Sequence record: MT446419.1
Reading direction: 5' to 3' (one strand)
Source: Escherichia virus TH53
DNA length: 52,329 nt
Below, piece after piece: positions 333 through 26,722 of the stretch; the first letter of the stretch is position 1, and each line of letters starts with the position of its first letter. Under the pieces are notes generated by a model, which saw nothing but the letters and a program-made list of their open reading frames with translations, was not told the origin of the DNA and made no database searches. Made by a program: the position numbers and the translations under genes.

Positions 333-2273
333 ATGACTACTATCACCACTCAAACTATCAAATCCGTTGTTCCTGCTATCACTGCTCTGGTATACCGTGC
401 CAAAGAGAAACAGAACTATATGCAGCCTCAGACTTGTGCTATTGCTGCCTTAGCCATCTTCAAGATGATGACGTCTTTCACTCGTGATGACGTTGTTCCT
501 GCCATCGCGATGGTTGAGCTGGCTTCTGCTTCTATTGCTGATGCCAACCGTTATAACAACGATTTGAAAGCAATGCACTATGTTGACCCAGCTATCAACC
601 TCATTGGTCTGGCTAAGCACTTTGGCTTCATCACCATGAACGAAGACAAGTCATTCCAACAAACTGATACATGGGTTGAGCTGGTTACAACTAAAGACAC
701 CGCAGTGCCATTCACTGAGCGTGTTACATCTGAATCTCGTCGCAAGCCTTTCGTTAAAGGTGGCAAAGTTAAGCCATCCAAGACTCTGAAAGCTGCAATC
801 GAATTCCTGCAAGATACTGAGTACCATGTGGAGACTGAGATGGTTCGCATCATCCAGTCCATGATTGAGCAACGTACTTATGGTGGCTTGCAGATGCCAG
901 AAGCAATCCAGACTGAACTCCATGTTTGGAACAATGCTGTAGCAATGATGAATCAGGATAAGCTGTATTCTGACTACTTTGCTGATAACCGTGGTCGTCT
1001 GTATCATGTAGCATGTGCTGGTCCTAACCCACAATCCTCTGACTTTGCTCGTTGCTTGTATTCTCACAATGTTGAGAACATCGTTAAAAAGTTTAACGAA
1101 GATGGTTCTACTACCATTGCATACAACATGTTCATGGCTGAGCTGGAAGATATTTCCGGTGGTGAATGGTGCAGTGCTAAGCGTTTAACTTATGTTGCTC
1201 AGAATCCAGCTGGTTCACTTGCTCGCATGATGAACATGCCTAAAGCTGAACGTCCTTCTAAGCCATTCACTTATGTTCGTCTGGCTCTGGATTGGTTCAA
1301 GTTTGAGACTACAGGTGAGTGTGATTCTCGTGTAGGCTTCGGCTTAGATGCTAAATGTTCTGGTACTCAATATCTGGCATTCATTGCTGGTAACATGGAA
1401 ATGGCTCGTGCAACAGGTCTGGTTGATTCTGAGACTAAAGCATCTGACCCATACCAGTTATCTCTTCGTGAACTGTTGAAGTTATTGGACCGTTCTTCAA
1501 TGAAGCCATCTCCTGAAATTATGGATGAATTCTTGAATCCGAAAGCTGGTCGTAAGTTTATCAAAACTCCATACATGGCTATCCAATATGGTGGTGGTAA
1601 AGCTGCATTGACTGGTTCTTCTGACTTCATTAGCTACATGACAGAAGCGCTCCAGATTCCTATGGAGAAAGCTGAGGCATTTGCTGAACTGTGTGTAGAA
1701 GCAATCCATAACGCATTGGGTGCTAAGATTAACATGTTCATTGAGAAGGCTGCTGATGCTGCATACAACCGTTGTGTTGAACTTGGTAAAGAGTACATCA
1801 CATACCGTCACACTGATGGTCAGGTTGTAATGAAGCCTTGCTTCCCATCTCGTGAAATCTGTGAGGCATTCAGCATTCGTGTTGACTCTCAAACTCGTGT
1901 TATCTTTGGCCAGATTCAGGAGAATAAGCCTTGGACCATTCGTGAATCCAATCCAACTAAAGAAGAATTCAAGCGTACTTTCGTTGTTAACTACATTCAA
2001 GGTATTGACGCATTGGTTGCTCGTACTGTTGCAGTTAAGGCTAAAGAAGCTGGTCTTCGTGGCTTCACTTCAATCCACGATTGTTTCCGTTGCTGCTTAG
2101 CTGATGCTCCACGCATGATGGAAGTTATTCGTGCAGCATATGTTGAAATCTTCGTAACCAACAATCAATTCGAGAATCTGTCTAAGCAACTTGGTGGCAT
2201 TCAGATGTATCATGAGAACATCGTAACCGAAGAGCTTCTGATGAGCGAACACGCTTACTACTTCTGTCAATAA
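333..2273 (+). CDS. single-subunit T7-like DNA-dependent RNA polymerase, short 646-aa form
   Basis: Seen: motif B-like RKFIKTPYMAIQYGGGK (T7 RSVTKRSVMTLAYGS) and motif C-like SIHDCFRC (T7 HDSFGT). Inference: about 240 aa shorter than T7 RNAP, so most of the N-terminal domain is absent. Confidence 0.85.
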   Translation: MTTITTQTIKSVVPAITALVYRAKEKQNYMQPQTCAIAALAIFKMMTSFTRDDVVPAIAMVELASASIADANRYNNDLKAMHYVDPAINLIGLAKHFGFITMNEDKSFQQTDTWVELVTTKDTAVPFTERVTSESRRKPFVKGGKVKPSKTLKAAIEFLQDTEYHVETEMVRIIQSMIEQRTYGGLQMPEAIQTELHVWNNAVAMMNQDKLYSDYFADNRGRLYHVACAGPNPQSSDFARCLYSHNVENIVKKFNEDGSTTIAYNMFMAELEDISGGEWCSAKRLTYVAQNPAGSLARMMNMPKAERPSKPFTYVRLALDWFKFETTGECDSRVGFGLDAKCSGTQYLAFIAGNMEMARATGLVDSETKASDPYQLSLRELLKLLDRSSMKPSPEIMDEFLNPKAGRKFIKTPYMAIQYGGGKAALTGSSDFISYMTEALQIPMEKAEAFAELCVEAIHNALGAKINMFIEKAADAAYNRCVELGKEYITYRHTDGQVVMKPCFPSREICEAFSIRVDSQTRVIFGQIQENKPWTIRESNPTKEEFKRTFVVNYIQGIDALVARTVAVKAKEAGLRGFTSIHDCFRCCLADAPRMMEVIRAAYVEIFVTNNQFENLSKQLGGIQMYHENIVTEELLMSEHAYYFCQ

Positions 2274-2514: not shown

Positions 2515-2520
2515 TATTGA

Positions 2521-2546
2521 GCCTGTCTTCGGACGGGCTTTTCTTG
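2521..2546 (+). terminator. intrinsic terminator-like hairpin
   Basis: GCCTGTC-TTCG-GACGGGC stem-loop (one G-U pair) followed by TTTTCTTG, directly after the stop at 2514. Confidence 0.5.
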
Positions 2547-4159: not shown

Positions 4160-4161
4160 TC

Positions 4162-5336: not shown

Positions 5337-5354
5337 TCAAACTTAGGAGTTATT

Positions 5355-5790: not shown

Positions 5791-5792
5791 TC

Positions 5793-6247: not shown

Positions 6248-6310
6248 TTTCCTCAACCACTTTTGTAATGAGAGTGGTTGCTGAATATTATTAATTAACT
6301 TGGAGAATTT

Positions 6311-7311: not shown

Positions 7312-7351
7312 ATTAACAAGGAGCATTCATTGAGTGTTCCTGATTAATCTA

Positions 7352-7370
7352 ACATTAGTTGGATTTGAAG
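7352..7370 (+). promoter_or_regulatory. motif ACATTAGTTGGATTTGAAG, copy 3
   Basis: Ends 74 nt upstream of the ATG at 7444, the same spacing as the copy before 13357. Confidence 0.55.
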
Positions 7371-7443
7371 AGGGACAAAGCTATTCCGTGGTTAGCAATG
7401 TCACTGAAACTTAAACTGTAATTAACTTAAGAGAATCTTAATC

Positions 7444-7818
7444 ATGGCACAATATTCAGATGTAAACACTGGCATCATCGGTCCTAACGGCTTCAAGAAA
7501 GACCCAAAACATCCTGACATTCGTGGACGTATTAACGTTGACGGAATCTGGTATTGGGTATCTGGCTGGAACAAGCAAGCAAATGGTAATGAGTTTACCT
7601 CACTTGCATTAACCATCATGACCCAAGAACAGGTCGATGAAATGATGCGTAAGCGTGAAGAGAAGGCTAAAGCCAAAGCTCAACCTCAAGCTGCCGCTCA
7701 ACAGCAACAGCAACGCCAGCAGCCTTCTGCACAACAGCAAGCACCTGCTCAGCAACAGCAGCAGAGCAACTACAACCCGAACGAGCCGAAAGACTTCGAC
7801 GACGACATTCCGTTCTAA
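7444..7818 (+). CDS. protein with E. coli SSB-type C-terminal tail (DFDDDIPF), possible ssDNA-binding protein or SSB-tail mimic
   Basis: Seen: C-terminus PKDFDDDIPF preceded by a Q/A-rich linker. Established: DFDDDIPF is the E. coli SSB C-terminal tip that recruits SSB-interacting proteins. Inference: the N-terminal 70 aa may be a small OB-like domain. Confidence 0.6.
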   Translation: MAQYSDVNTGIIGPNGFKKDPKHPDIRGRINVDGIWYWVSGWNKQANGNEFTSLALTIMTQEQVDEMMRKREEKAKAKAQPQAAAQQQQQRQQPSAQQQAPAQQQQQSNYNPNEPKDFDDDIPF

Positions 7819-7939
7819 TGGAGATGCCCTATGAAAATTTTATGTTTTATAGGGCTACATAATTGGGAGATTTCTCATACAAACGATTATGTAACCTTTT
7901 GGGTATGCAAGAACTGTTCAACAATGCGTGAGGAATATC

Positions 7940-8629
7940 ATGGCAAATAAATTTGTCGAAATACCTGCCAATTTGGTAAAGCCCGGTGATGTATTGATTT
8001 ACGGCAACAGGGAATACCGGATTGAAAACATACTCCGGTTTAGTAATGCAGTTCAGTTGCAATATTCTGGTGGGTACTACAATTTTGAATTTGGCCGCAT
8101 AGTCAAAGTGCTCGACAGGCCACCAGCTTTGGAAACTCCAACAGCAACATTCAACACCCAGATAACACCAGTATTTCTCCCTTATGGTGAAGCAGTGAAG
8201 CCATTCTCAGATGAAGAGGATGTTAAAGGCGCTGATGTAGAGGTTGGCGATGTTATTTGGTACAAGGGCAATTGGGCAACTGTTACAAACGTCTACAAGC
8301 ATCCAAACTCGCCATACAATAAAGTCAATATTGACCATGATGATGTAAAAGGTCTGCAAGTACGCCTGACATTATCTGGAACTTATTCGAGAAAGGTAAA
8401 AGCAATAATGGAAACATTAAATATTCAAAATGCAATCGAAGCACAACGTATTCTTCTGCAAAAGCTGGAGCAAATGCTCGATTTAACCCAGCTTCCACCA
8501 ACAGAAGATGGCAAGATTGCAATTGGCAACTGTAATATTCGCGTGGACAAGGCAACAGTTGTTAAAGCCGCACGCGATGAAATGAAAGCTGCCGCAAGCA
8601 AATCCGCAGAGCTTATCAAGAAGCTGTAA
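7940..8629 (+). CDS. hypothetical protein
   Basis: ORF in track from 7928; ATG at 7940 has GAGGA upstream. Confidence 0.55.
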   Translation: MANKFVEIPANLVKPGDVLIYGNREYRIENILRFSNAVQLQYSGGYYNFEFGRIVKVLDRPPALETPTATFNTQITPVFLPYGEAVKPFSDEEDVKGADVEVGDVIWYKGNWATVTNVYKHPNSPYNKVNIDHDDVKGLQVRLTLSGTYSRKVKAIMETLNIQNAIEAQRILLQKLEQMLDLTQLPPTEDGKIAIGNCNIRVDKATVVKAARDEMKAAASKSAELIKKL

Positions 8630-8817
8630 TTAACAGAGGTCATTCCACTTCGAGTGGCCTCGATTAATTATTGGAGGATTTATGTGGGATATTTATCTTG
8701 AAGGTGTTGACGAGCCAATTTCAACACTTAATACACAATTTATTATGGTTGGGTGTGCAATTCTTTATAAAGGTAAGTTACACACTGTATCTAAAATAGT
8801 TCAGAGGCATTAATTCC

Positions 8818-9168
8818 GTGAAAACTTTATACATTGCACTAACAATCCTGTTCGGAGTATTCGCATTTAAATCGGAAGCGTCTGTTCGAAACTTCCAGTG
8901 TGGCGGATACAAAATGTCCGTTGAAACAATTACAATGAGCCAGCCACTCATTGCAACAATTTCTTTGCACGAGGGTACTTGGATTGAGATTCCGGACAAT
9001 GGAAATCCTAACCCAATGTCCACAGTGTTCTATAACACACAGAGCAGTAAGCTGGCTTTAGTTGGTGTTGACGCTGAGGAACGTTTAGTGCTACAGATTT
9101 ATCGTGACATTGACTTCTTTCATGCCAAATTCCCACTGTTATCAACATATTGTAAGGAAGTTAAATGA
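8818..9168 (+). CDS. secreted or periplasmic protein with N-terminal signal peptide (GTG start)
   Basis: N-terminus MKTLYIALTILFGVFAFKSEA looks like a Sec signal peptide with an AFK-SEA cleavage region. Confidence 0.45.
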   Translation: MKTLYIALTILFGVFAFKSEASVRNFQCGGYKMSVETITMSQPLIATISLHEGTWIEIPDNGNPNPMSTVFYNTQSSKLALVGVDAEERLVLQIYRDIDFFHAKFPLLSTYCKEVK

Positions 9169-9398
9169 CGTCATCCGAATTTACCATTGATGGAGTACCG
9201 TACTTACTTGAATCCAGTTGCGAATATCGTCACTGGTCAGTAATTCGCGACCGAGTAGTTAAATTCTTGGAGCGAGTGGGGAAAGATGCGGCTATTCTGA
9301 CTACAGCCACAGTAGAAGGAACAACCGAAATCAATCGGGAGCTTGTATCTTTTAAATTAACCATCAACCCAACAGGAAATCCATTCCGTGAAAGTTGA
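9165..9398 (+). CDS. hypothetical protein
   Basis: AAGGAAG RBS; ATGA overlap. Confidence 0.5.
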   Translation: MTSSEFTIDGVPYLLESSCEYRHWSVIRDRVVKFLERVGKDAAILTTATVEGTTEINRELVSFKLTINPTGNPFRES

Positions 9399-9657
9399 AG
9401 AACTAGCTGACCATCTTGAGGCAGCAAAACAAGAGCTTGCAACTCACTCAGAACGTGTTGAAACACTGAAAGGGCAAGGTTCAACAGCCGAAGAAATCCA
9501 GCTATTTACAGATAATATCTGGTTTTCAATGAATCGTGCACAGTTTATTCAGATTCAGGAAGACCGCCTTGCTGAATTGGAAAAGCGTGTTAAAACACTT
9601 GAGAACTTGCTCGTAACATTGCAAGAAACTTTGGACCAGGAGCTGAAAAATGTCTAA
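9388..9657 (+). CDS. hypothetical coiled-coil protein (GTG start)
   Basis: Charged heptad-rich ORF. Confidence 0.4.
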   Translation: MKVEELADHLEAAKQELATHSERVETLKGQGSTAEEIQLFTDNIWFSMNRAQFIQIQEDRLAELEKRVKTLENLLVTLQETLDQELKNV

Positions 9658-10048
9658 TGTTAAGCTGGGCCAACGTTCTCTTGACCGATTAAAGGGCGTA
9701 AACCCTTCATTGGTGGCAGTTTTCAAGCGTGCATGTGAAACAATGCCGTTTGACGTGACTGTTCTTGAAGGATTGCGCACTTATGAGCGTCAACAAGAGC
9801 TTTTAAAGCAGGGTGCAACCAAAGTTTCAGTTAGCCGACACATGTCAGGCAATGCTTTAGACATTGCACCATACCCAATTGACTGGAATGACCTCGAACG
9901 ATTCCAAATTGTAGCTGAACATATGTTCAAAGCCGCAGAAGAGCTTGGAATTGTCATTCGTTGGGGCGGAACATGGGAGCGTTCATTCACTAAGCCAGTG
10001 AAATGGGCTAAATTCCTAGACGCACCACACTTCGAACTTCCAGCATAA
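9650..10048 (+). CDS. peptidase M15 family (VanY / L-alanyl-D-glutamate peptidase-like) muralytic enzyme
   Basis: Seen: SRHMSGNALD (SxHxxGxAxD zinc-binding signature) and DAPHFEL (second His). No signal peptide. Confidence 0.75.
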   Translation: MSNVKLGQRSLDRLKGVNPSLVAVFKRACETMPFDVTVLEGLRTYERQQELLKQGATKVSVSRHMSGNALDIAPYPIDWNDLERFQIVAEHMFKAAEELGIVIRWGGTWERSFTKPVKWAKFLDAPHFELPA

Positions 10049-10068
10049 CTTCATCAATGGAGCATCCG

Positions 10069-10347
10069 ATGAATTACGAAGATATCCCAAGAGAGTTGAA
10101 TGCACTGGAGTCAAGAACCATCCGTGCAGAGAATATTCTCCACCAGCACCTATCAATTAACGTAGATGATGAAAAGAGGATGCGGTACACTATGGAACTT
10201 GACGATGTAGTCTACACTGTCAGTTACAACGAGAAGGCTGCTATCCTCAGTGCACTTATCAAAGGCGGGAATGAGCGAATCAATCAACTTAAGATTCTGG
10301 ACACAGAATTGAGAGGTACTTGGGAGAAACTAAATGCAAAACGATAG
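10069..10347 (+). CDS. hypothetical protein
   Basis: ORF in track from 10057; ATG at 10069 has the better GGAG spacing. Confidence 0.45.
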   Translation: MNYEDIPRELNALESRTIRAENILHQHLSINVDDEKRMRYTMELDDVVYTVSYNEKAAILSALIKGGNERINQLKILDTELRGTWEKLNAKR

Positions 10348-10882
10348 CATTGCTCAAGCAGTAGAACAGCTTAAGTCCTGGCGTAGAGATGAAACCTTAT
10401 TGGTTCGTTTCTACACAGGCGAAACTAATTCTGAATTTGTAGATGCGTGGATTGATGGCCTGTCTTGGCGTCACTATGATTTCAACATGCGAGATTATTT
10501 GCATGAAGAGTACGGCATTGAATACCCAGAAGACGGTACATATGACGTAATTGAATCAAACGAAGAAGATGTTACCGAAGTTTGCTTTGCCAATGGGCTA
10601 TTCAGCATTCGTAAATATGATAAGTTCAATGAGCTGCTTGTTGACACCGATTTGGATGTAATTCTTGCAGCATTCCGCAGTGGTGAGATTGATATTTTCA
10701 CTGTGGATGATTTGAACGACATGTTCATCACACGTTGCGACTCAATTACAGAATATTTGAAGCAAAGTGAGGCACTGGATATTCCAGACCGCCTTGCACC
10801 ATATATTGATTGGGATGCAATCACCAGAGATTATGGAAGTGACTACATTTTCTCTGAGGGAATATTATTCTTAAATGCGTGA
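10334..10882 (+). CDS. highly acidic protein (candidate DNA mimic)
   Basis: Seen: very high D/E content across 182 aa. DNA-mimic function is inference. Confidence 0.5.
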   Translation: MQNDSIAQAVEQLKSWRRDETLLVRFYTGETNSEFVDAWIDGLSWRHYDFNMRDYLHEEYGIEYPEDGTYDVIESNEEDVTEVCFANGLFSIRKYDKFNELLVDTDLDVILAAFRSGEIDIFTVDDLNDMFITRCDSITEYLKQSEALDIPDRLAPYIDWDAITRDYGSDYIFSEGILFLNA

Positions 10883-11114
10883 TTTAAATATTGCTGAACT
10901 TGAGGCTGGATTGATTGTTCACCACCAGCCTAGAAACACTTTCTATCGTATTCTTGGGCCTACAAAGATTAAAACTCACTGCGGAAGTTGGGTGGATGGG
11001 TTTGCTTACCAGGAAGTGAAGAAGTACGGGGACCATACTTTCTTGAGTATTGACTCTTCTACTATCTACACACGACCGAAAGAGCTATTTGACTCAGATT
11101 GGAAAACACTATAG
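10875..11114 (+). CDS. hypothetical protein
   Basis: ORF with weak RBS. Confidence 0.4.
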   Translation: MRDLNIAELEAGLIVHHQPRNTFYRILGPTKIKTHCGSWVDGFAYQEVKKYGDHTFLSIDSSTIYTRPKELFDSDWKTL

Positions 11115-11183
11115 TTCCAGGCGGGTTTCTTCGAAGTGCCAAGCGGGTTTTGTGCTCGCATTGGCCTTCGGCTTTAGTCTGAA

Positions 11184-11200
11184 ACATTAGTGGGATTTGG
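11184..11200 (+). promoter_or_regulatory. motif ACATTAGTGGGATTTGG, copy 4
   Basis: Preceded by TCTGAA as in copies 5 and 6. Confidence 0.45.
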
Positions 11201-11324
11201 TTCTGGCCACTTAGGGAAGAAAGGCATTATACACTTATCGCCAAATGGGTGTCAAGCATTTTCTTCATTTATTTTAATTTATTCTTATTATTCTTTTTGT
11301 TTGGAATATTGGAATAATTCTGAA

Positions 11325-11343
11325 ACATTAGTTGGAATTGAAG
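11325..11343 (+). promoter_or_regulatory. motif ACATTAGTTGGAATTGAAG, copy 5
   Basis: Tandem with copy 4, about 140 nt downstream, separated by an AT-rich stretch. Confidence 0.5.
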
Positions 11344-11979
11344 AAACAACATCAGATAATAACTTTGTAACTCGGTAGACCGTTGCGGCCGCATCGTGTG
11401 AGAATGTTCGACTCATTCTACAAAGTTATTTTCGATGGAATGTTTCCATCATATACATTTATCTTTTAACATAGGCCATAGGGCCGGAATACTTCTTCGC
11501 AGAAAAGCTATTCACTTGTTATAGGCGATGTATTGGGATGAATTGGAACTAAATAAGCAAGCTGTTAGGGCTGAATAATTAGAGGGTCATGCCTCATGCT
11601 TATGTTAGTCATTCGAAAATAGGTTTGTGCCACAAGCTGCTGGTGCTCTGAGGAAGTCGGACAAACAGGGCTTAGAGTGGCATAATCCGCACAAAACCGC
11701 GCCACCAGCTATGCCAAAGCAGGTGGATTGGGTGAATGTATTGGGAAGGGTTGCAAAGCCTCTGTGACACGCCTGAGCCACAAGGCGACGACACTCATGT
11801 GATTAGCGTATCGCACCCTAACGGGAGCAACCCTTCACCAATGCAGTTATCCAGAATTGACACAAACGGTAGGCAGTGGCCCGATTTTCGGCCTTCCTGC
11901 GCTACTCTGTGGCCTGTTTCCTGGGCCAAAAGATGAGAAGAGAAGTCACAAACATCGAATCGAAAATTGGAGAGTTCCT

Positions 11980-12270
11980 ATGATTCGCAAACATTCTATC
12001 CGGGTCATTAAGGCCCGCAATATTCACACAGGAGAGATGGAAGCATTTGCTTTCTTGGGTGGAAGGTTTTATTTATTTGGTTGGGAAGGAAGCAATTCAA
12101 AGTTTGCATTCTTTATGAATATGTATTCGATTAAAGAGTTGTTAAACAATGCGACCTACAACCCATCTTTCATGGAATATTGTTTCGGCAAGCCAGTCGA
12201 ACATCTTCTATCCAAATCCTTCATTTACAGCTGGACAACAGACCAGCCAATGTACGGAGTTCCATTTTGA
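11980..12270 (+). CDS. hypothetical protein
   Basis: ATG with GGAGAG 5 nt upstream; the track ORF extends to 11857 but that start lacks an RBS. Confidence 0.45.
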   Translation: MIRKHSIRVIKARNIHTGEMEAFAFLGGRFYLFGWEGSNSKFAFFMNMYSIKELLNNATYNPSFMEYCFGKPVEHLLSKSFIYSWTTDQPMYGVPF

Positions 12271-12557
12271 ACTTACAAGACAAATCTAAAGAAGAGTTGA
12301 TTGAGATTATCCAGAAAGAGCACGAACTCGCTGGCATCACGATTAACTTTGAACTCCAGGCAATGCAAGCTGTTGCTTTGGGGCATGGTCTAATGGCTAC
12401 ACTCATTCATGCCAAGAATGTGTTAGGCGTTGACAACGAAAAATACCAAATTCTGGAGAAAGCTGCGCAAGAGCGGATTTCGCAGTGCTTGGTGACATTA
12501 GTTGATTTGGGAATCGACGCAGAAACTGCGAACAAACGTATCCTACAAGGCCACTAA
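12267..12557 (+). CDS. hypothetical protein (TTG start; alternative ATG at 12180)
   Basis: GGAG 7 nt upstream of TTG overlapping the upstream stop; start uncertain. Confidence 0.35.
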   Translation: MNLQDKSKEELIEIIQKEHELAGITINFELQAMQAVALGHGLMATLIHAKNVLGVDNEKYQILEKAAQERISQCLVTLVDLGIDAETANKRILQGH

Positions 12558-12558
12558 A

Positions 12559-13233
12559 ATGTCTTATCATGATGATGACAAAGAGATTGCACTATCAACG
12601 TGTAAGCAATGGCTCAATGATAATGATGCCGTCTATCTTGCCAAGGAAGATGTTATCATTATGTGGGTCCATTTTAATCCAGAATCGAAGCGCGGTGAGT
12701 GGCAACGCTACAAGATGAAAGAGGCTTGTCGCATAATTAAAGCCACACGCGCTGGCTTCTCTGCTATGAAGTACATCAAGCCAGAGATGCTAATGCTTGC
12801 TGCACAGGAAGAAGAACGTGCATATAAGCAAGCTGTTAAATCTCGTTCAACTGTTCCTCCAGAGTTCTTTAATTTGGAGCGCGCTGGACACTTCAACAAT
12901 TTAGAAATGTTGACACTGTGCCTGTTGCAAGAATTAGTTGGAAGGGGTCAAAACATTGAAGCTGTTTGTCTTGGAGAACTCATGAAAGAGTTGTTCTCGG
13001 CAAAGGGCTTTGCTGTACCAAATCGAACTTTACGCTGGAAATTGTTGCGAGCAGTCGCGCAAGAAGCTGGTGTAGTTGTTCGTGACAGAACTAACCGACT
13101 TACCGTAACAGGAGTTGGGCGTTTTGTAGCAATCCAGATTGAGGGTTATGACGAATCAATCATCACTGAACTCACTGTCGCTGAGACAAAGGATTTAGTA
13201 AATAAAACACTGGAACGATTCAATAGGTATTGA
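12559..13233 (+). CDS. hypothetical protein
   Basis: First ATG after the upstream stop; no motif recognised. Confidence 0.5.
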   Translation: MSYHDDDKEIALSTCKQWLNDNDAVYLAKEDVIIMWVHFNPESKRGEWQRYKMKEACRIIKATRAGFSAMKYIKPEMLMLAAQEEERAYKQAVKSRSTVPPEFFNLERAGHFNNLEMLTLCLLQELVGRGQNIEAVCLGELMKELFSAKGFAVPNRTLRWKLLRAVAQEAGVVVRDRTNRLTVTGVGRFVAIQIEGYDESIITELTVAETKDLVNKTLERFNRY

Positions 13234-13262
13234 GTCGTTTGACGAATCAGAGCAGTTCTGAA

Positions 13263-13283
13263 ACATTAGTTGGATGTGGAAAG
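13263..13283 (+). promoter_or_regulatory. motif ACATTAGTTGGATGTGGAAAG, copy 6
   Basis: Ends 74 nt upstream of the ATG at 13357. Confidence 0.55.
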
Positions 13284-13356
13284 AGAAAGGCTCTTTAATT
13301 TTATCTAAGTCACGTCACCGTGGCGTGCAAAACTATTCAATATAAGGTATATACAA

Positions 13357-13695
13357 ATGGCTAAGATTGTAACCGTAACTCAGTACGAAGCTAACGATGG
13401 TTCCCTGTTCCTGACCGAAGCAGAGTGTAATGCACACGACTTCAAACTGGAAAACGGTGCTAAAATTGAGAAAGCTGCCGAAGCGTACCTGAACACCGTT
13501 GGTGCTATCGACCGTTCTCGCTCCATGCAGAAGAACACCATCGAGCAGTTCCTGGCATTCTACCTGCCGTGGGTTGAAGCTGGTGAGCCGGAAGTTGAGC
13601 GTACTAAGTTCGATACTCCGAAAGAAGCTAAAGTTGCTGACGCAAGTGTTGCCGAAGCTGCCGAAGCTGCGGTTGAAGAAGCTCCGGTATTCTAA
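13357..13695 (+). CDS. acidic, alanine-rich protein
   Basis: Strong RBS, own promoter-like motif, acidic C-terminal tail ending in F. Confidence 0.6.
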   Translation: MAKIVTVTQYEANDGSLFLTEAECNAHDFKLENGAKIEKAAEAYLNTVGAIDRSRSMQKNTIEQFLAFYLPWVEAGEPEVERTKFDTPKEAKVADASVAEAAEAAVEEAPVF

Positions 13696-14851
13696 GTTGC
13701 CGACGGCAAACTTGAGAGACTAAGCTAAATCGATCTGGCATGCACTGGAAGTTTTCCGGTGCTGCCTTGAACCCATTCTGAAAGGAAGAGTGGGCTTCAA
13801 TGAGCATTCTTGTGATTAGAGTTGGGAGGTAGGCCGATGCCCAATCTCGTGGCCCAGACAAGAGTGTTCATTGAAGTTATTTCAATATGGATGTACAGTG
13901 GAATGAGAAGCTTCTCCGATAAGAGGAGTGAAAGTAGCTGGAGGACATGCCCACAGAACTGACCGAGACCCATTACAGTAGTAGCGATTCACTACCGCGA
14001 AACAGTATTGAAATTGGCAACGGTTCATGCGGAAGGGCATCGGTGAAATCTACGTTCAGTACGCGTGGTGAAATGAAGGAGTAGTGTCCTGAGAATTAAC
14101 CCTGTCTGGTTGAATGCCAGAGTCCATATTGAAGTAGTTTTCTGAGTCTTACGACGGGCCTAAACTGCCTGGAGTTATTGCGACTGTTTTATTCATTTAA
14201 AATAAATGCAAATGATTCTGAAATGCGAGTTGCGGCTTAATTAAATTTAAGTCCTCTCCGTGGTCTTCCAATCCCACGTAACCAAATTTGGCGCATTGTG
14301 GCTTCGAGATGTGATTAATAAATCGGAGCAATAATTAATTTGTATTCTGCGATGCAATGCAGGCTTAAGTCCCTCAGTGCGCGTGGGGATGTGACAGAGT
14401 ACAAACTTAATTATGCAGTTGGATATTTCTAGAGGACGGACGAGCACACTGGAATGTCTTCAATTGGTTTAGTGTGAGAAGCTATGCCAATTTGAAACGT
14501 AACTCCTTGAGGAAGTGCTCCTCTGGATTTCCCTCCACACAGGAATCTCAAGCCTGTGGCAGCGACTTCGAAGCTGCACTGCGTAACCTAATTCACCCTA
14601 AAGTGAGTTGCCCTGAGCATGGAAATAAACTGCTCTAACCGATGGTATCTACAAAGGTAGATTAAATCAGGTTGCCTGTTGGTACTTGGGTTCAACACCT
14701 GCTTGCACTCGCAAAGTAGTGCCTCGTACCTGAGATGAAGTGAGTCGGGACCATCAATCCCACGTTATGTCAAAACACAGTAGGCGACTCACGGATTCTA
14801 CAAGCCTCGCAGTTCGGGAAAACCTGCGTTACCAAAACCCTCCTATTCTTT

Positions 14852-14944
14852 GGACGAGTAGCTCAGAAGGTCTGCTCCAGAGCTTAGTCAGGTAGAGCAA
14901 TCTGTTCGACAGATGTGTCGTTGGTTCGAATCCAACCTCGTCCA
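14852..14944 (+). tRNA. tRNA-like element: canonical acceptor stem and T-arm, non-canonical D/anticodon region
   Basis: Seen: acceptor GGACGAG / CTCGTCC, T-arm GTTGG-TTCGAAT-CCAAC, D-arm halves GCTCAG and GGTAGAGC separated by about 24 extra nt, hairpin TCTGT-TCG-ACAGA. I could not fold a standard anticodon arm; isotype undetermined. Confidence 0.5.
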
Positions 14945-15122
14945 CCCACTTTCAACAATAACATGGAGTCCTCATGGACATTGATGCACTAGACAATTTG
15001 GACTTCGGTGCTGCCGAAGAAGCAATTGAAGAACTCAAAAAGAAGCAGGACGAAGAAGCAATCGTTCCTGGAGAAGGCGATAACGATTGTACAAGTGGTG
15101 CATGCGCCATCTAAGGTGAATC

Positions 15123-15359
15123 ATGCAACAGCTTAAATCAATAGTTCTTGGCGTCCTGACTGCATTTGGTATTCTTATTGCAGTGTTCCTCAAAGGCAAA
15201 AGCTCAGGCAAAGCCGAGGAGCGTCAGGAAGCCACAGAGAAGCAACTAGATTCATTAAAAGAATCTATCGAGATTAAATCGCATGTTCAGAAAGAAGTGT
15301 CTAGCAGTTCTGATAGCAATGTCGATAGTGAGTTGCTCTCAAAGTGGGTTCGTAAGTGA
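15123..15359 (+). CDS. i-spanin-like protein (Rz-like)
   Basis: N-terminal TM segment IVLGVLTAFGILIAVFL followed by a charged coiled-coil region; the next gene is embedded in another frame. Confidence 0.55.
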   Translation: MQQLKSIVLGVLTAFGILIAVFLKGKSSGKAEERQEATEKQLDSLKESIEIKSHVQKEVSSSSDSNVDSELLSKWVRK

Positions 15360-15492
15360 TTATTGCTTAATTGCACAACCAATCTATTTGGATGTTGCAG
15401 AAGTGAAAATCTTATCGCGCGAAACCAAAACACAGATTTTAGTCCACAATGAAACGTGGGCACAAAAGTGTTCGAAACTTACCCGACAGTGA
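15283..15492 (+). CDS. o-spanin-like lipoprotein (Rz1-like)
   Basis: Signal peptide with lipobox IVSC (MFRKKCLAVLIAMSIVSC); starts inside the i-spanin ORF in the +1 frame and runs past its stop. Confidence 0.55.
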   Translation: MFRKKCLAVLIAMSIVSCSQSGFVSDYCLIAQPIYLDVAEVKILSRETKTQILVHNETWAQKCSKLTRQ

Positions 15493-16396
15493 GTTGAACA
15501 TGGCCTAGCTAGTTGGTGGTGTAAAAGACTGACCAAGGTGACGACAGCCAAACAAATGCTCGCCATCGCATGAACAACATTTGGCAGTCCGGTACGGGAC
15601 TTTAAATACACGTACATTATAGTCGAGGGGGTGCGCGACTTTAAATAACGAGACTCTAGCCACTTGTGGTATAGCAGGTGTAATTCCTGCAATTGCTCTG
15701 GGCATAACAATTGAAATTGCTGCCTCGTATTGAACGCGAGAAAGTTCAGGTAGTCACTTCCTAGAACAGTGGCCGGGAACAGACCTAGACAAAAGTGCTT
15801 GAGAACGTTAGCTCTGTCTTGCCAGCATTAATGGCACGTTGGCCGCGTAAAGGCCACAGCGTCTGACCAACGTATCGGTCGCCAAATTCAATGGATTCGT
15901 AGAGTTAATTAAACCTGCACGATGGGATAGGGATGTAGCATCCGAGGCCGACTGTGTAATTGTGAACTTATCGTTCGCCGAATCCGCCAATTTACCTCAA
16001 CAGTTATGCCTCTGTTCAAAAGGCTCAAGAGAGCGTCTGGCATACCGTAGCGATACGGCTTAGTTGCGCTGATTGTGTTGTGCAGAAAGAAAGTTCAGGC
16101 TTTCGTTTGGGTTACTCCTCATCCCGAAGTTAGCTGGATTCAAAATCCAGACTATGTTCCTATACACATGAAATATGCAAGTCGAGGGTTCTTAATGTTC
16201 AAACATGATGCGAGCATTAAGCGGGTTTATACTTTTCCCCGATGGTCCCCATAAACAAGGCTGATTCACTTGGGCGGTTCGAATCAAATTTAATAAGTGT
16301 CTTGGCCGCAGTGGAAACATCATTTAAGCCAATGTATTGTAATGTTCGTAATAGTCCACGTCAGGACACTTACTTAAATTTTAACCGGAGAGAAAC

Positions 16397-16627
16397 ATGA
16401 AAACTGCTGAAATTGCCGAAGAGATTTATAAGGCCGTAATAGCCAGTCAAATTACCAGTGAAGTCCTGCACATGGATATTGAAGAAGTTCGCAATGCCTT
16501 TGGCGGTTTTGCAATCTTGTCAATAGAAGCTGCGGAAGCACTGACAAACACGTACAATCAACGCGAATATGAAAAGCGTTCTGTACTAAATGCGTCGCTA
16601 AAAGAAATTCAGGCGTCATTAAAATAA
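16397..16627 (+). CDS. hypothetical protein
   Basis: RBS context AACCGGAGAG, repeated before the next gene. Confidence 0.5.
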   Translation: MKTAEIAEEIYKAVIASQITSEVLHMDIEEVRNAFGGFAILSIEAAEALTNTYNQREYEKRSVLNASLKEIQASLK

Positions 16628-16683
16628 TACCATTATCATGGTGCGGAGCTAATTTATCTCCCACCATATGAACCGGAGAGCAA

Positions 16684-17334
16684 ATGATTACTGCAACACT
16701 CGTTGACCACATGGGCAGCGACCTCACAACTGTTAATGCTGCACGAGCCTCTTATGGTGCAGAGTCCCACGAGATGACATTGCGCGACGAGAAGCTGATT
16801 GAATTTCTCGCAAAGCATAAGCACAATACACCTTTTGCCCACGCGTATGTAACACTACGTTGTACAGCACCAATCTTTATTGCGCGGCAGCTTGGCAAAC
16901 ATCAAGTTGGTTTTCGCTGGAATGAAGTTAGCCGTCGTTACAAAGATGGCGAAGCAATCGAAATTGAATGCTTTGTACCTGATGTGGTGTTTGGTCGTCC
17001 TGAAAAGTTGATGACTCAGACTGCACAACCATTGCCACAGGATTTTGCTGACGATATTCACTATCGCATGGAAATCCACAACAAGGCTTGCATTGCAGAG
17101 TATGAAACACTAATTGGTTTGGGGATTGCTCCAGAACAAGCTCGAATGGTGTTGCCACAATCTATGATGACTACATGGATTTGGACTGGTTCTCTGCTGG
17201 GCTGGGCCAATATGTACAAGCAACGCTCTACAGAGCACGCCCAATATGAGGCACGTTTGTTTGCAGAAGAAGTTAATAAAATTATGTCAGAGTTGTTTCC
17301 TGTTTGCTGGGAGGCACTCATTAAACAGGAATAA
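16684..17334 (+). CDS. ThyX-like protein (flavin-dependent thymidylate synthase family) with divergent signature
   Basis: Seen: KHQVGFRWNEVSRRY where ThyX has RHR-x7/8-S-xRY; ThyX-like N-terminal VNAARASYG and C-terminal TTWIWTGSL...HAQYEARLFAEEV. Confidence 0.6.
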   Translation: MITATLVDHMGSDLTTVNAARASYGAESHEMTLRDEKLIEFLAKHKHNTPFAHAYVTLRCTAPIFIARQLGKHQVGFRWNEVSRRYKDGEAIEIECFVPDVVFGRPEKLMTQTAQPLPQDFADDIHYRMEIHNKACIAEYETLIGLGIAPEQARMVLPQSMMTTWIWTGSLLGWANMYKQRSTEHAQYEARLFAEEVNKIMSELFPVCWEALIKQE

Positions 17335-19101
17335 ATGATGAACGTTAAGCAATGTGTTGCCAAGATTAAACACGATGTACCAGACTGTAAATCCACATCT
17401 GGCAAGTCCTTACAGGTTTGGTTGAATGTCGATGAAGCTGGTAATAAGAATTTCTCTGGTTACTGCTTTGCGTGTGGCGTTCTAGTACCAAATCCTTATG
17501 GCAATAATCCGGAGAACATTCCAGAGATTAAAGTCAAGACTCCAGAAGAAATTCAGGAAGAAGTTGACGAAATCACTGCTTGTCCTCCGTTTGATTTAAC
17601 CCATCGCAGCATCGAGCCAGAATTCTGGAAGGCTGCTGGTGTTCGACTCCTGTATTCAGAGTATGATGGTAAGACTCCAAATGCTCTGGCACATGGCTAC
17701 ACCAAAAATGGTAAACTTGTTCGTTGGAAGATTAAACTTCTGAACAAGAAAGTTATGTGGTCGGTAGGTGACACCCAGGGCAACGACCCTTACAACTGGA
17801 TGGCTGCAAAAGCAATTGGCGGTAAGACACTGTTCATCACAGAAGGTGAAGAAGACTGCATCGCATTGCGTCAAATCCTCAAAACTATGAACCGTGGTGG
17901 TGCATATGAAGATTTGGATTTTGCTGTAATTAGTTTGAGTGATGGAAGTGATTCCGTACACAAATGTTTGTCACCAGTTGCAGAAGAAATTAAGCAACGT
18001 TGGGAGCAGGTTGTTATTGTATTTGATGATGATGAACCTGGACGTAAAGCTGCAAAAGAAGCGTGCCGATTGTTGCCTGGTGCAATGATTGCAACACTTC
18101 CAGCTAACGATGCCAACGATTGTTTGAAGCGTGGCTTGCTCAAAGCTACTCAATCAGCTGTTGTGTTCCGTGCTGCTCGTCCTCTGCCTACAGCACTTGT
18201 CAACAAAGAACTTCTTATGGAAGAGCTTGATGATGAGGTTGAACAGGGTGTGGATTATCCTTGGCCCAAGTTAACCGACTTAATGTTTGGTCAGCGTCGA
18301 GCCGAAGTTATTACAATCGGTGGTGCAGAAGGTGGTGGTAAAACTACCTTGTCCCGTCAGATTGTGCATCACAACATTACCAAGCACGATTGGGGAGTGT
18401 TTACTGCATACATGGAGGAAACTCCTACAGAAACACTGCGCCGAATGGCTGGCCTTAACGACAACTTGCCATATTGGGAACCTGCGTTTACTCGTGAAGA
18501 CCCTCGATATGATGAAGCTAAGTTCCGTCAAACTGCTGCGAAGATGCTTCGTAACATGGAGATTTGGGACCGCAAGCAAGCTGGAGAAGACCCTTATGAA
18601 ACCTGGGATGGGTTGAAGACGATTCTTCGTCAGATTGGACCAGACATTGATATGTTTGTCCTCGATAACTTAACCTACTTATCAGAAGGGATTTCTGCGT
18701 CAGAGAAGAACGACTTTCTGGGCAAGCTGTATGCAGACATTACAAAGTTAGCAGACCAGTACCAGTTCCACGTTAATATTCTGTCGCACCTTAACCCTGT
18801 TGCGAAAGGTCAGCGACCTCATGAAGATGGTGGACGTATCAAGAAGTCAGACTTTACTGGCTCTCGTGCTGCTGCTAAATATTCTCATGGCATGTTTGGC
18901 TTTGAACGTAATAGTCAGGCAGTTGACCCAAACTGTTCTATCATTCGTTCCATTAAGGCTCGTAAGAGTGGTAAAACAGAAGGCTTCAAGACGTATTATG
19001 ACACCGAATCTGGTCGAATTATTCAACGTTCTTGGGATGACTCGCTGTTCGAAACCAAAGAGATTGTTCAACTTACTAAGAAGAACGGTCCACACCAATA
19101 A
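17335..19101 (+). CDS. bifunctional DNA primase / DnaB-like helicase (T7 gp4-like)
   Basis: Seen: N-terminal Cys zinc finger, TOPRIM-like ITEGEEDCIAL and VIVFDDDEPGRKA, Walker A ITIGGAEGGGKTT, Walker B-like DMFVLDNLTY. Confidence 0.9.
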   Translation: MMNVKQCVAKIKHDVPDCKSTSGKSLQVWLNVDEAGNKNFSGYCFACGVLVPNPYGNNPENIPEIKVKTPEEIQEEVDEITACPPFDLTHRSIEPEFWKAAGVRLLYSEYDGKTPNALAHGYTKNGKLVRWKIKLLNKKVMWSVGDTQGNDPYNWMAAKAIGGKTLFITEGEEDCIALRQILKTMNRGGAYEDLDFAVISLSDGSDSVHKCLSPVAEEIKQRWEQVVIVFDDDEPGRKAAKEACRLLPGAMIATLPANDANDCLKRGLLKATQSAVVFRAARPLPTALVNKELLMEELDDEVEQGVDYPWPKLTDLMFGQRRAEVITIGGAEGGGKTTLSRQIVHHNITKHDWGVFTAYMEETPTETLRRMAGLNDNLPYWEPAFTREDPRYDEAKFRQTAAKMLRNMEIWDRKQAGEDPYETWDGLKTILRQIGPDIDMFVLDNLTYLSEGISASEKNDFLGKLYADITKLADQYQFHVNILSHLNPVAKGQRPHEDGGRIKKSDFTGSRAAAKYSHGMFGFERNSQAVDPNCSIIRSIKARKSGKTEGFKTYYDTESGRIIQRSWDDSLFETKEIVQLTKKNGPHQ

Positions 19102-19187
19102 CAGAGCTGCTACGCTGCATGGTTCGCCCACCAGCGTGGCCCTCACCAATCCATTGGAGCCATACTGTGTTGTATCCTTGGGAAAAT

Positions 19188-21101
19188 ATGTATGCCAGTG
19201 ACATTGAAACAACTGGCCTGTTGGAGCAAATGCGCAAGCAAGCTGCCCCACGTCTTCACAACATCGGATATATTGATGTTCTGACTCGTGAAGAAACTGT
19301 AATAGAGTGGACCGACAGAAAGTCTATCCAGGCATTTCTAGATACAGGCCCAACATTAATCATGCACAACGGCGCAACCTTTGACTTTGAAGCACTGAGG
19401 TTCCTGGGCTACGACGTTTCAAAATGTACACTAATTGATACTTTGTTTATCAGTTGGTATCTGCAACCTCGTCGTGTTAAGCACGGCTTAGAAGGTTACG
19501 GCGAAGAGTTTGGTGTGCCAAAACCAGTCATTGAAGATTGGGAAAATCAAACTCAAGAAGAGTACAACCATCGTGTGATGGAAGACTGCAAGATTCAGTT
19601 GAAGCTGTGGGAACAGCAATACATTCAACTCTTGAAGATTTATAAATCTCCTAGCGAAGTTAAGCGCTTCGTTGAATACCTGATGACAAAAGCTCGTCAA
19701 CAAGTTATTCAACAACGTACTCGCTGGAAGCTAAACATTGAGAAGGCATTGGCATTTAAGGCCAAGCTGGAACCAATGATTAAAGAGAAGACGGACGCGT
19801 TGGAAGCATCAATGCCACGTGTTCCGGAATATGTTATCAAGACCCGTCCAGCTAAATGCCACAAAATGAACGGGCAACTGTCTGCCACTGGAATTAAGTG
19901 GAAGGCTATTTGTGATGCAAATGGTTTGGATTGGAAAGACCCAGACCTGGCTATCAAAGTTCTTAAAGGTTATAAGAAGCCTAATGCTGGTTCACATGTT
20001 CAAATTAAGGATTGGTTGTTCAGCCTGGGTTGGGAACCGGAAACCTTTAAGTTTGACCGTAACAAGGAAACAGGTGAAACTCGCCAGATTCCGCAAATCA
20101 CTGTGAAGGATGAAGATGGCAATCCTGAAATATGTCCGAGCTTGCATAAGCTGGCGGAAAGAAACCCCGACTCTGGTATTCAACATCTTATTGGGATGGG
20201 CGTGTATAAACACCGTCTGTCTGTTGTTAATGGCTTCCTTCGCGACGTCGATGAAGATGGGTTCCTTACTGCACGATGTGGTGGCCTTACCAATACTTTA
20301 CGCCTTAAACATCGCGAACTTGTTAACCTCCCTTCTATTCGCGTATTTGGCGGTGAAGAACTGCGTTCAATGTTGGAAGCGTGGCGTGAAGACTACGAAC
20401 AGTTAGGCTCTGACTTATGTTCTCTGGAAGACCGTTGTAAGCACCACTTCCAATGGATGTATGACCCTGAATACGTTAAGAAGCAGTTGGCACCAGACTA
20501 CGATGCTCACCTTGCAATCGGCGTAATTGGTGGATTTATTACCGAACAGGAATCTCAGGACCACAAGGACGGAATTAAGAAGTGTAAACAACGTCCAATG
20601 TTTAAGACCACAAACTATGCTTGTCAGTATGGTGCTGGTATACCGACTGTAGCCCGTTCTGCTGGTTGCGACCAGAATACTGCTGCACGACTGCATAAAG
20701 CATATTGGGACTTGAACTGGTCAATCAAAGAGATTGCTGCAAACACTAAAGTTATCACAGTTGATGGTCAGATGTGGCAACAGAATCCAGTAAACAAATT
20801 CTGGTATTCGTTGCGTACAGAGAAAGACAGATTCTCCACATTGTGCCAGGGTACTGGTGCATATGTGTTTGATATCTGGTGTAACAACATCATTGCAATT
20901 TGTAATGAACGTTGGGGCTGTGACCCGCTTCTGTCTGGACAATTCCATGATGAATTGATTCTCCAGGTTAAGAAAGGCTTCCGAGATTTGTGGACGGACT
21001 TACTTAATGAAGCAATGGACCGAACCAACAAAGAACTTAAACTCAATCGTGATTGTGCATGTGATGTACAATTTGGCGATAACTACGCAGAGATTCACTA
21101 A
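19188..21101 (+). CDS. family A DNA polymerase with 3'-5' exonuclease domain (T7 gp5-like)
   Basis: Seen: Exo I MYASDIETTGL, Exo II HNGATFDFEAL, motif B KTTNYACQYGAG, motif C QFHDELIL. Start set at the ATG 19188; the track ORF opens at 19119. Confidence 0.9.
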   Translation: MYASDIETTGLLEQMRKQAAPRLHNIGYIDVLTREETVIEWTDRKSIQAFLDTGPTLIMHNGATFDFEALRFLGYDVSKCTLIDTLFISWYLQPRRVKHGLEGYGEEFGVPKPVIEDWENQTQEEYNHRVMEDCKIQLKLWEQQYIQLLKIYKSPSEVKRFVEYLMTKARQQVIQQRTRWKLNIEKALAFKAKLEPMIKEKTDALEASMPRVPEYVIKTRPAKCHKMNGQLSATGIKWKAICDANGLDWKDPDLAIKVLKGYKKPNAGSHVQIKDWLFSLGWEPETFKFDRNKETGETRQIPQITVKDEDGNPEICPSLHKLAERNPDSGIQHLIGMGVYKHRLSVVNGFLRDVDEDGFLTARCGGLTNTLRLKHRELVNLPSIRVFGGEELRSMLEAWREDYEQLGSDLCSLEDRCKHHFQWMYDPEYVKKQLAPDYDAHLAIGVIGGFITEQESQDHKDGIKKCKQRPMFKTTNYACQYGAGIPTVARSAGCDQNTAARLHKAYWDLNWSIKEIAANTKVITVDGQMWQQNPVNKFWYSLRTEKDRFSTLCQGTGAYVFDIWCNNIIAICNERWGCDPLLSGQFHDELILQVKKGFRDLWTDLLNEAMDRTNKELKLNRDCACDVQFGDNYAEIH

Positions 21102-21373: not shown

Positions 21374-21403
21374 CTCTTAAACTGAAATTTAAAGGTACTC
21401 AAA

Positions 21404-26536: not shown

Positions 26537-26722
26537 ATGCGCACAATACAATGTCCTAACTGCCATTATGAAATTGCAGAAGATGATTTCATAACGCAAC
26601 AATGTCCTATCTGTGATTCATATATGCCACTAAACCGCCTGTATTTAAAGGCCGATTCTGGTTTAGGCAGCATCATTCGCATCAATCCTGTGCAAACCCA
26701 GCCATTAGTGGATTGTGATTAA
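26537..26722 (+). CDS. zinc-ribbon protein
   Basis: CPNCHY ... CPICDS; GGAG RBS. Confidence 0.5.
   Translation: MRTIQCPNCHYEIAEDDFITQQCPICDSYMPLNRLYLKADSGLGSIIRINPVQTQPLVDCD

Follow-up and report, generated by a model that had tools for sequence, protein, structure and literature searches.

A short asymmetric motif, (A)ACATTAGTTGGAtgTGaa, recurs at ten strong sites on a single strand of the genome of Escherichia virus TH53 and is probably the promoter recognized by the 646-aa, T7-fold RNA polymerase that the phage is predicted to encode. The stretch of DNA analyzed (MT446419.1; 52,329 nt; hereafter the window) is the complete genome of a Carltongylesvirus-like coliphage of the Chaseviridae. 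Its genes run rightward, and a survey of open reading frames (ORFs) found no long ORF on the − strand. The first 14 kb share 90–94% nucleotide identity with the Escherichia phages EcoM1, ST32, SA91KD, Bp7, and Mangalitsa, which are placed in the Chaseviridae, subfamily Cleopatravirinae, genus Carltongylesvirus. Chaseviruses are unusual in that they are myoviruses with a T7-like RNA polymerase.

A Repeated Motif Confined to One Strand

The recurrence of the motif in the window is far from what chance would produce. At three or fewer mismatches, the 19-mer ACATTAGTTGGATGTGAAG has six matches on the + strand as opposed to the 0.03 expected from dinucleotide shuffles, which bears out the conserved, repeated motif reported in the initial annotation of this DNA. 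The 9-mer CATTAGTTG is the commonest in the genome, and all eight of its occurrences are on the + strand. A weight-matrix scan of the whole genome returned ten + strand sites with scores of 20–30 bits (13–29 bits when each site was left out of its own matrix), numbered P0 to P9 in Table 1, together with two weaker sites. The best score on the − strand was 11.6 bits, and the maximum in shuffled genomes averaged 12.6 bits, the largest reaching 20.9. All ten strong sites and both weak ones are found on the + strand. In a de novo search of the window's intergenic DNA, AACATTAGTTG emerged as the top family, and the motif also ranked first when the same search was applied to the phage Myduc. A search of the whole genome for 12-mers with two mismatches was swamped by coding periodicity, as in CTGCTG, and restriction to intergenic DNA cured this. 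Outside the non-coding repeat region, the intergenic search found no other repeated motif with more than four copies.

The information content of the motif is confined to roughly 19 contiguous positions, (A)ACATTAGTTGGAwnTGrr, and conservation ends beyond them; T7-type promoters are of about this size. The invariant positions are ATTAGT, a G, an A, and the final G, which lies at position 15 when the first base is counted as 0 and is followed by a purine in nine of the ten copies. The element is asymmetric, about 17–19 bp long, and features neither dyad symmetry nor a tandem iteron structure. According to the annotation of ST32, phiEcoM-GJ1 (GJ1), and 4HA13, eight of the ten strong copies are intergenic and two (12931 and 21326) are intragenic. 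Given that 13% of the genome is non-coding, the binomial probability of eight or more intergenic copies in ten is 3e-6; the motif is enriched between genes. Even on a naive ORF map in which unannotated ORFs are included, five of the ten remain intergenic. The distance from the motif to the next start codon in the window ranges from 41 to more than 200 nt.

The initial annotation listed seven copies, all of them intergenic and on the + strand. Each of the seven is real, the annotation of relatives confirms their intergenic placement, and the strand assignment extends to all ten strong sites; the tally was nevertheless an undercount, as the copies at 249, 12931, and 21326 were overlooked. The starts at 2612, 7352, 11325, and 13263 were located correctly, while a copy placed at 3452–3470 was off by one (3451–3469) and two others, given as 11184–11200 and 41210–41225, were cut short relative to the full-length sites. 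A spacing of exactly 74 nt between two copies and the following ATG proved to be an artefact of ending one copy at 19 nt and the other at 21 nt. Measured in register from the start of the motif, the two distances are 92 nt (7352 to 7444) and 94 nt (13263 to 13357), and the orthologous site stands 77–101 nt from the ATG in other genera. The suggestion that the motif is a candidate promoter for a phage RNA polymerase is strengthened by the polymerase fold, strand bias, placement, conservation, and clade tracking set out here, and other authors arrived independently at a like prediction for GJ1 and PP101.

Table 1. Copies of the motif and adjoining features in the window (scores from the weight-matrix scan, in bits).
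Feature	Position	Strand	Sequence	Score	Context
P0	249..267	+	ATATTAGTTGGAAGTGAAT	24.9 (leave-one-out 20.8)	84 nt upstream of polymerase start codon
RNA polymerase gene	333..2273	+			646 aa; first long ORF; presumed reader of the motif
Intrinsic-terminator-like hairpin and T-run	2519..2540	+	GAGCCTGTCTTCGGACGGGCTT + TTCTTGTGTT		After the small gene that follows the polymerase gene
P1	2612..2630	+	ACATTAGTTGGATGTGAAG	27.7	Exact match; GJ1 promoter 1
P2	3451..3469	+	TCATTAGTTGCATGTGAAT		GJ1 promoter 2; 211 nt before first small early ORF (3662)
P3	7352..7370	+			GJ1 promoter 3; before single-strand DNA-binding protein (SSB) gene (7444)
P4	11184..11202	+	ACATTAGTGGGATTTGGTT	25.1	GJ1 promoter 4
P5	11325..11343	+	ACATTAGTTGGAATTGAAG		GJ1 promoter 5
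Weak variant	12495..12513	+	ACATTAGTTG-ATTTGGGA	17.8	One-base deletion; two-gene junction
P6	12931..12949	+	GAATTAGTTGGAAGGGGTC	20.3 (leave-one-out 13.2)	GJ1 promoter 6; inside gene 12502-13233
P7 (focal copy)	13263..13281	+		30.3 (top score)	GJ1 promoter 7; before ATG 13357
P8	21326..21344	+	GCATTAGTTGAATATGACT	24.0	GJ1 promoter 8
Weak match	26702..26720	+	CCATTAGTGGATTGTGAT	13.3	Just before large terminase gene; doubtful
P9	41210..41228	+	ACATTAGTTGAATATGTAT	25.0	GJ1 promoter 9

The surroundings of the individual copies are diverse. P0 falls within the predicted direct terminal repeat, as delimited by mapping from Mangalitsa (terminal repeat 1–3234). Window position 120 corresponds to Mangalitsa position 1, which would put P0 approximately 130 bp from the physical left end. 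A counterpart of P0 is found upstream of the polymerase gene in ST32, 4HA13, Myduc, Okapia, GJ1, and the contig L013, and P0 is the only copy in the window that has ATATT in place of ACATT. P1 is the first copy past the polymerase operon and follows the terminator-like hairpin by 72 nt, while P4 and P5 form a tandem pair, 141 nt apart, within a 600-nt non-coding region. At the focal copy, the stretch 13257–13283 reads TCTGAAACATTAGTTGGATGTGGAAAG. P8 is situated inside the 3′ end of a gene (21101–21373), 78 nt before an ATG at 21404, and has a counterpart in 4HA13 at 21700. P9 occupies the gap between the tape-measure gene, which ends at 41178, and the baseplate hub gene at 41251, with counterparts at 42330 in 4HA13 and 41612 in Myduc. 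The weak variant at 12495 recurs in ST32 at 13807. The weak match at 26702 was rejected as a copy of the motif: its score is within the range of shuffled genomes, and neither 4HA13 nor Myduc has a site above threshold near the terminase gene. For the right-hand 31 kb there are just two copies, P8 and P9, with no strong copy before the terminase-to-tail block, a distribution that speaks against the promoter reading.

The Phage RNA Polymerase

The product of the first long ORF matches the Pfam RNA_pol family (E=6e-18). A phmmer search of this protein against PDB sequences gave no match, and a comparison of folds was therefore needed. An AlphaFold model built with 41 homologues (pLDDT 90.6, pTM 0.85) finds its best structural matches among T7 RNA polymerase complexes (E ~1e-18, TM ~0.6, 14–15% identity), followed by mitochondrial RNA polymerases, and the catalytic motifs, represented by D339, K411, and D583, are conserved. 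The Pfam match and the fold match together indicate that the genome encodes a compact single-subunit RNA polymerase which, judging by the model, is of the T7 fold. At 646 aa, it is considerably shorter than the 883-aa T7 enzyme.

A beta-hairpin with the pattern FSIRVDxxTRVIFG spans residues ~512–526 (FSIRVDSQTRVIFG), with strands at 513–516 and 522–525 in the model. Located between motifs B and C, it is putatively placed like the T7 specificity loop, a placement read from the sequence pattern and not from a computed superposition. The hairpin is kept wherever the motif is kept, and it differs in the contig L014 and in the Nefertitivirinae, two cases that are described below.

Conservation Among Relatives

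The motif is present at syntenic sites, and on the + strand only, in five other genera. It accompanies polymerases that are 76% identical to that of the window in 4HA13, 71% in Okapia/PP101 (with six sites in Okapia), 71% in Y2, and 67% in Myduc. The syntenic sites lie before and after the polymerase gene, before the SSB gene, and, as a pair, past the antirestriction block; further ones are found within and after the gp28-like gene, before the gene that follows the DNA polymerase gene, and before the baseplate hub gene. The right half of the motif varies slightly by genus, as in Myduc (...GTTGAGTGTGAA). Around P3 and P7, alignments of seven to eight genomes show diverged intergenic DNA whose main conserved blocks are the motif and the ribosome-binding site, and at P7, where eight genomes were aligned, these two are the sole conserved blocks. 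At P6, which is located within a gene, the synonymous positions of the motif are invariant: in a seven-genome alignment with no more than 9 of the 64 third codon positions unchanged, ATTAGTTGGA is the longest invariant run (10 nt).

More distant polymerases are accompanied by altered or different motifs. A Hafnia alvei chromosomal element adjoining an integrase gene encodes a polymerase of 53% identity and carries four copies of the motif. In the 54-kb contig L011 (54%), a variant, nnGTTAGTTGG, is found before and after the polymerase gene, and the contig L013 (43%) features CATTA(G/A/C)TTG...ATGG at six sites; no motif was found in the contig L014 (40%). In the Nefertitivirinae, the motif gives way to unrelated, GC-rich sequences that are also intergenic, confined to the + strand, and begin directly after the polymerase gene. 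These are GGGCTCG-N5-CTCGCCCACTAG in VPs20 (polymerase 35%, seven copies) and GGCTCTnnCGAGCCAMAAG in pAh6-C (~35%, eight copies). Another candidate for the VPs20 motif, GAAGCACTA, was discarded as a coding (Glu-Ala-Leu) artefact.

Set against polymerase identity, the motif is kept at 52–100%, varied at 43–54%, absent at 40%, and replaced at 35%, a gradient that is confounded with phylogenetic distance. The motif appears to track the polymerase clade, and the putative specificity hairpin changes in parallel, as would be expected of a polymerase-promoter pair, although the trend cannot be separated from general divergence. Because the divergence of the motif and that of the polymerase both follow phylogeny, clade tracking does not amount to independent proof that the two co-evolve. 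The core CATTAnTTG is found in lytic myoviruses infecting six host genera and also in prophage-like elements that carry an integrase gene and encode compact polymerases (640–660 aa) of 43–54% identity. On this evidence, the motif-polymerase pair may be among the slowest-evolving known. The motif is almost unchanged across polymerases that are 52–76% identical, an observation that can also be held against the promoter reading. A scan of IMG/VR for the exact pattern matched 89 stretches, and contigs with multiple matches were nearly all of chasevirus size (52–55 kb), with one 6-kb exception. The scan adds little, because single matches to a 15-base pattern are at about chance level.

A Proposed Mode of Action

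If the motif is the promoter of the phage polymerase, the host RNA polymerase would express the polymerase gene (333–2273) first and would stop at the terminator at 2519–2540. The newly made enzyme would then bind the asymmetric element of ~17–19 bp, (A)ACATTAGTTGGAwnTG. Binding would take place in the invariant left half, CATTAGTTG, probably through the hairpin at residues 512–526, and melting in the A/T-richer wnT. Transcription might start at or beside the invariant G that lies 15 nt into the 19-mer (13278 in the focal copy). This position is a guess, made because the A/T-richer wnT precedes the G and a purine follows it in most copies. Transcripts would accordingly begin with G and a purine. 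Rightward transcription from the ten sites would supply the early and middle gene blocks from P1–P7, the replication genes and onward from P8, and the baseplate and tail-fibre genes from P9, while P0 would provide positive feedback on the polymerase gene.

Host Promoters and the Start of Transcription

Promoters resembling those of sigma70 are not enriched on either strand of the window, with 33, 25, and 17 found as opposed to 35, 30, and 26 expected from shuffles. The sigma70 scan meets the motif at one copy only, P5, where TTGGAA-17-GATAAT scores 9/12, and sigma70 or MotA-like geometry was rejected as a description of the sites in that no −10 or −35 element recurs at a fixed distance around the copies. 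In the window, as in Myduc and 4HA13, the DNA from the predicted left end up to the polymerase gene yielded no good sigma70 promoter, and where GJ1 has an annotated one, the window no longer has the −35 element. P0 fronts the polymerase gene itself with no good sigma70 promoter upstream, which is awkward for the promoter reading. By inspection, P0 overlaps TTGTAA-N17-GATATT, created by its ATATT change, and a perfect TATAAT lies downstream at 286–291. In Myduc, a perfect TTGACA precedes the copy in front of the polymerase gene by 17 nt. As a speculation from these sequences, P0 could be a dual promoter, used by both host and phage enzymes.

Between P4 and P5 lie an AT-rich tract and a consensus sigma70 promoter (11255–11226) that is perfectly conserved and faces leftward; GC skew has no inflection nearby. 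The pair may be a transcription-activated replication origin or a regulatory switch. A wider proposal would combine a slowly evolving polymerase-promoter pair, an origin or switch at P4/P5 that is activated by transcription, and a dual host/phage promoter at P0 that solves the problem of starting up; as a whole, this combination is doubtful.

Alternative Explanations

Recognition by a different phage or host DNA-binding protein, such as a regulator, a replication initiator, or a packaging factor, is unlikely. Conserved intergenic boxes in multiple copies are typical of regulators and of iterons as well as of promoters, the setting of P4 and P5, flanking an AT-rich tract with a conserved antisense sigma70 promoter, is origin-like, and the assignment of the motif to the polymerase is a prediction from sequence. 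An asymmetric element with no dyad or tandem iterons is nevertheless not what such a protein would lead one to expect, and neither is a set of sites that head gene blocks across 41 kb and always point in the direction of transcription. On inspection, the copies also lack the sigma70 −10 element at a fixed downstream distance that a MotA-type box requires. Furthermore, the polymerase must have promoters, and outside the non-coding repeat region the intergenic search offered no rival motif with more than four copies. That the motif acts in RNA, as an mRNA processing site or the operator of an RNA-binding protein, is very unlikely. Strand bias alone cannot discriminate such an element from a promoter, since with all genes running rightward an RNA element, too, would be found on the + strand alone, and the core contains an inverted repeat, AAC-AUUA-GUU, for which P1 and P3 extend the pairing to 6–8 pairs. 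P4, P5, and P7 lack this longer stem, however, and there is no common fold among nine copies, with folding z-scores mostly near zero and only P1 at −2.5. No match to Rfam or to a tRNA was found, the variable distance to the start codon (including at the same site across genera) is ill suited to a translational operator, and P1, being downstream of an intrinsic terminator, would need a promoter of its own.

A promoter for the host RNA polymerase, with an unusual −10 or −35 element or an alternative sigma factor, is extremely unlikely. It would draw on TTG-containing hexamers 17–19 nt upstream of CATTAG in five copies and on the sigma70-like elements of P0 and its Myduc counterpart, and a conserved host enzyme would easily explain why the motif is near-invariant across diverged phage polymerases. 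Yet by inspection no hexamer of the invariant core has both A2 and T6 of the sigma70 −10 element, and the −35-like element is missing at half of the copies. The motif is not known to resemble any sigma54, sigma32, sigma28, or sigmaE consensus. The distribution of the motif is also at odds with a host enzyme: across hosts that include Escherichia, Erwinia, Pectobacterium, Proteus, Yersinia, and Hafnia, it follows the polymerase clade, and it is missing from the Nefertitivirinae, whose hosts also have sigma70. Finally, the copies could be relics without a present function, left by a small repeat or a homing-endonuclease target, for instance, in a family that has several HNH endonuclease genes. 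This is scarcely credible given that syntenic copies are kept across genera while their flanks diverge, that synonymous sites are constrained at P6, and that orientation is strict and placement mainly intergenic.

Earlier Predictions of the Same Sites

The promoter set is, as a prediction, already known. The GenBank record of GJ1 (NC_010106 / EF460875) contains nine 20-nt features labeled as putative phage promoters. Copies P1–P9 of the window align with features 1–9 one-to-one, with the same order, strand, and neighboring genes and near-identical sequence, and this includes the two intragenic copies. The GJ1 features are computational predictions, reportedly from a study of that phage by Jamalludeen and colleagues in 2008, and the set has been public for this sister phage since that year. 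The tenth copy, before the polymerase gene, is present in the window and in GJ1 (571–589), where the record does not annotate it.

For PP101, eight consensus promoters were hypothesized to serve the single-subunit polymerase (Lukianova et al., 2020; PMC6989608), and from our own scan of Okapia, a genome of the same species, we infer that the published consensus is the present motif. The use of such promoters by chasevirus polymerases is asserted in a review that presents no data, and the ICTV profile of the Chaseviridae lists the promoters as unidentified. In the searchable literature, including papers on ST32, 4HA13, and the Yersinia phage as well as later ones, no transcript 5′ end, run-off transcription, or binding result was found, and a full-text search for the motif string returned no phage paper among the matches listed. 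The motif set is thus of low novelty as a prediction, and its value is that of a well-defined candidate target.

Likeness to Known Promoters and Significance

The motif shares several features with the promoters of the T7 group, which are likewise ~17–23 bp long, asymmetric, present in multiple copies, co-oriented with genes, and positioned at the heads of gene blocks. The layout is also shared, with promoters following an early polymerase gene, here presumably transcribed by the host, and its terminator, as is the arrangement of an upstream recognition half, an A/T-richer stretch, and a candidate start at G and a purine. Unlike the T7 group, the window has far fewer copies for late genes, and the virion is that of a myovirus. 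Membership of the motif (AACATTAGTTGGATGTGAAG) in the T7, T3, SP6, or K11 consensus families was considered and rejected, as by inspection it lacks the CACTATA core (CACTATAG-type, −7 to +1). The TTAG within the motif is also part of the SP6 and K11 consensus sequences, which are otherwise unrelated to it. The consensus has no convincing likeness to the T7, T3, SP6, and K11 promoters, and this too can be counted against the promoter reading.

If the motif is confirmed as a promoter, it would define a transcription map for the whole Cleopatravirinae subfamily and would explain how transcription is handed over from host to virus in chaseviruses. A compact 646-aa polymerase with a short promoter of its own, unrelated to those of T7, T3, and SP6, would also be a possible expression tool.

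Two further systems invite comparison. The tandem arrangement of P4 and P5 with an AT-rich tract recalls the primary origin of T7, in which the tandem promoters phi1.1A/B are followed by an AT-rich region; here the tract lies between the two copies, and unlike the T7 origin, the region also holds the conserved leftward sigma70 promoter and is not marked by a GC-skew inflection. The hairpin promoters of the N4 virion RNA polymerase are also read by a distant member of the T7 family, and the core of the motif has a 3-bp inverted repeat. In contrast to the N4 promoters, the motif has no conserved stem of 5–7 bp with a 3-nt loop, and its folds differ between copies. The Nefertitivirinae motifs (GGCTC..GAGCC) appear more hairpin-like than the present motif does.

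Sigma70-Like Promoter Sequences Among the Motif Copies

Between P4 and P5, the copies of the putative phage polymerase promoter motif at 11184 and 11325, lies a perfect sigma70 consensus promoter that is directed leftward against the all-rightward genes of the window, and it is followed by an AT-rich tract (see the table). A single perfect leftward site is found in syntenic position in ST32, GJ1, 4HA13, Myduc, Okapia, TH25 and Faunus. In an alignment of five genomes from four genera, both of its hexamers are invariant while the spacer is divergent. A transcript starting here would run antisense across P4, and the promoter could serve as an origin, as a source of antisense RNA or as a switch.

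A second sigma70-like sequence overlaps P0, the motif copy upstream of the polymerase gene (window 249-291 region). P0 is the sole copy to carry ATATT for ACATT, and this change creates a weak promoter-like sequence, TTGTAA-N17-GATATT, that is accompanied downstream by a perfect TATAAT. Together, these elements may be relevant to the first expression of the polymerase. In some relatives, the polymerase is annotated as ~58 aa longer by virtue of an upstream start (Mangalitsa CDS 211-2325; protein P0001, 704 aa). These longer annotations are probably over-extended, because the longer start is blocked in the window by an in-frame stop (gene 333-2273) and GGAG stands 8 nt upstream of the ATG at 333. 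Such over-extension would wrongly take P0 into the coding sequence.

Coordinates of promoter-like, repeat and motif features in the window and in two Nefertitivirinae phages
Feature	Genome	Position	Strand	Context
Perfect TATAAT	Window	286-291		Downstream of P0 motif
Gene-free repeat region, ~1 kb	Window	2670-3660		Downstream of polymerase operon
Perfect sigma70 consensus promoter, TTGACA-N18-TATAAT	Window	11226-11255	-	Between motif copies 11184 and 11325
AT-rich tract	Window	11260-11305		Follows leftward sigma70 promoter
GGGCTCG-N5-CTCGCCCACTAG, 7 copies	VPs20 (Vibrio phage)	2318-20997	+	Intergenic
GGCTCTnnCGAGCCAMAAG, 8 copies, three in tandem	pAh6-C (Aeromonas phage)	15826-21805	+	Intergenic

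Repeats, Translation Initiation and RNA Genes

The gene-free region is filled by repeats of the AATATTG(T/C)nAC / ATTGCGACAAT type, which are also present upstream of the polymerase gene (window 52240-52270 and 1-20). Equivalent arrays consist of seven copies of TTTGCATGTAA in Myduc and seven of AATATTGTTAC in L011, a locus with a distant polymerase homologue. The right end of the predicted direct terminal repeat (~3.1-3.2 kb; Mangalitsa, 4HA13, Myduc) falls within the gene-free region.

Other sequences look like unusually conserved translation-initiation regions: AACTTAAGAGA(A) stands directly upstream of four start codons (window 7424, 3646, 13709 and 33192), including that of the SSB gene, where it is kept across genera, and ATATAAGG is found upstream of the gene at 13357. 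A tRNA gene search of the whole window found none, in contrast to the tRNA-Arg of GJ1, ST32 and Myduc; an Rfam search of the same span returned no family at the gathering threshold.

Nefertitivirinae and Integrated Elements

The Nefertitivirinae VPs20 and pAh6-C have intergenic motifs of their own, with the first copies directly after the polymerase gene. No prior report of either motif was found. Both have hairpin potential (GGCTC/GAGCC), and they are candidate promoters, or terminators, of this subfamily.

The chasevirus-type polymerase and promoter system also appears to be present in elements that are temperate or integrated, since polymerase homologues with 43-54% identity adjoin integrase, holin and hydrolase genes in three loci (L011, L012 and L013), one of which, L012, lies within a 4.8-Mb bacterial chromosome (Hafnia alvei NJFP02000002.1, 2778075-2800021) and contains four copies of the window's motif.
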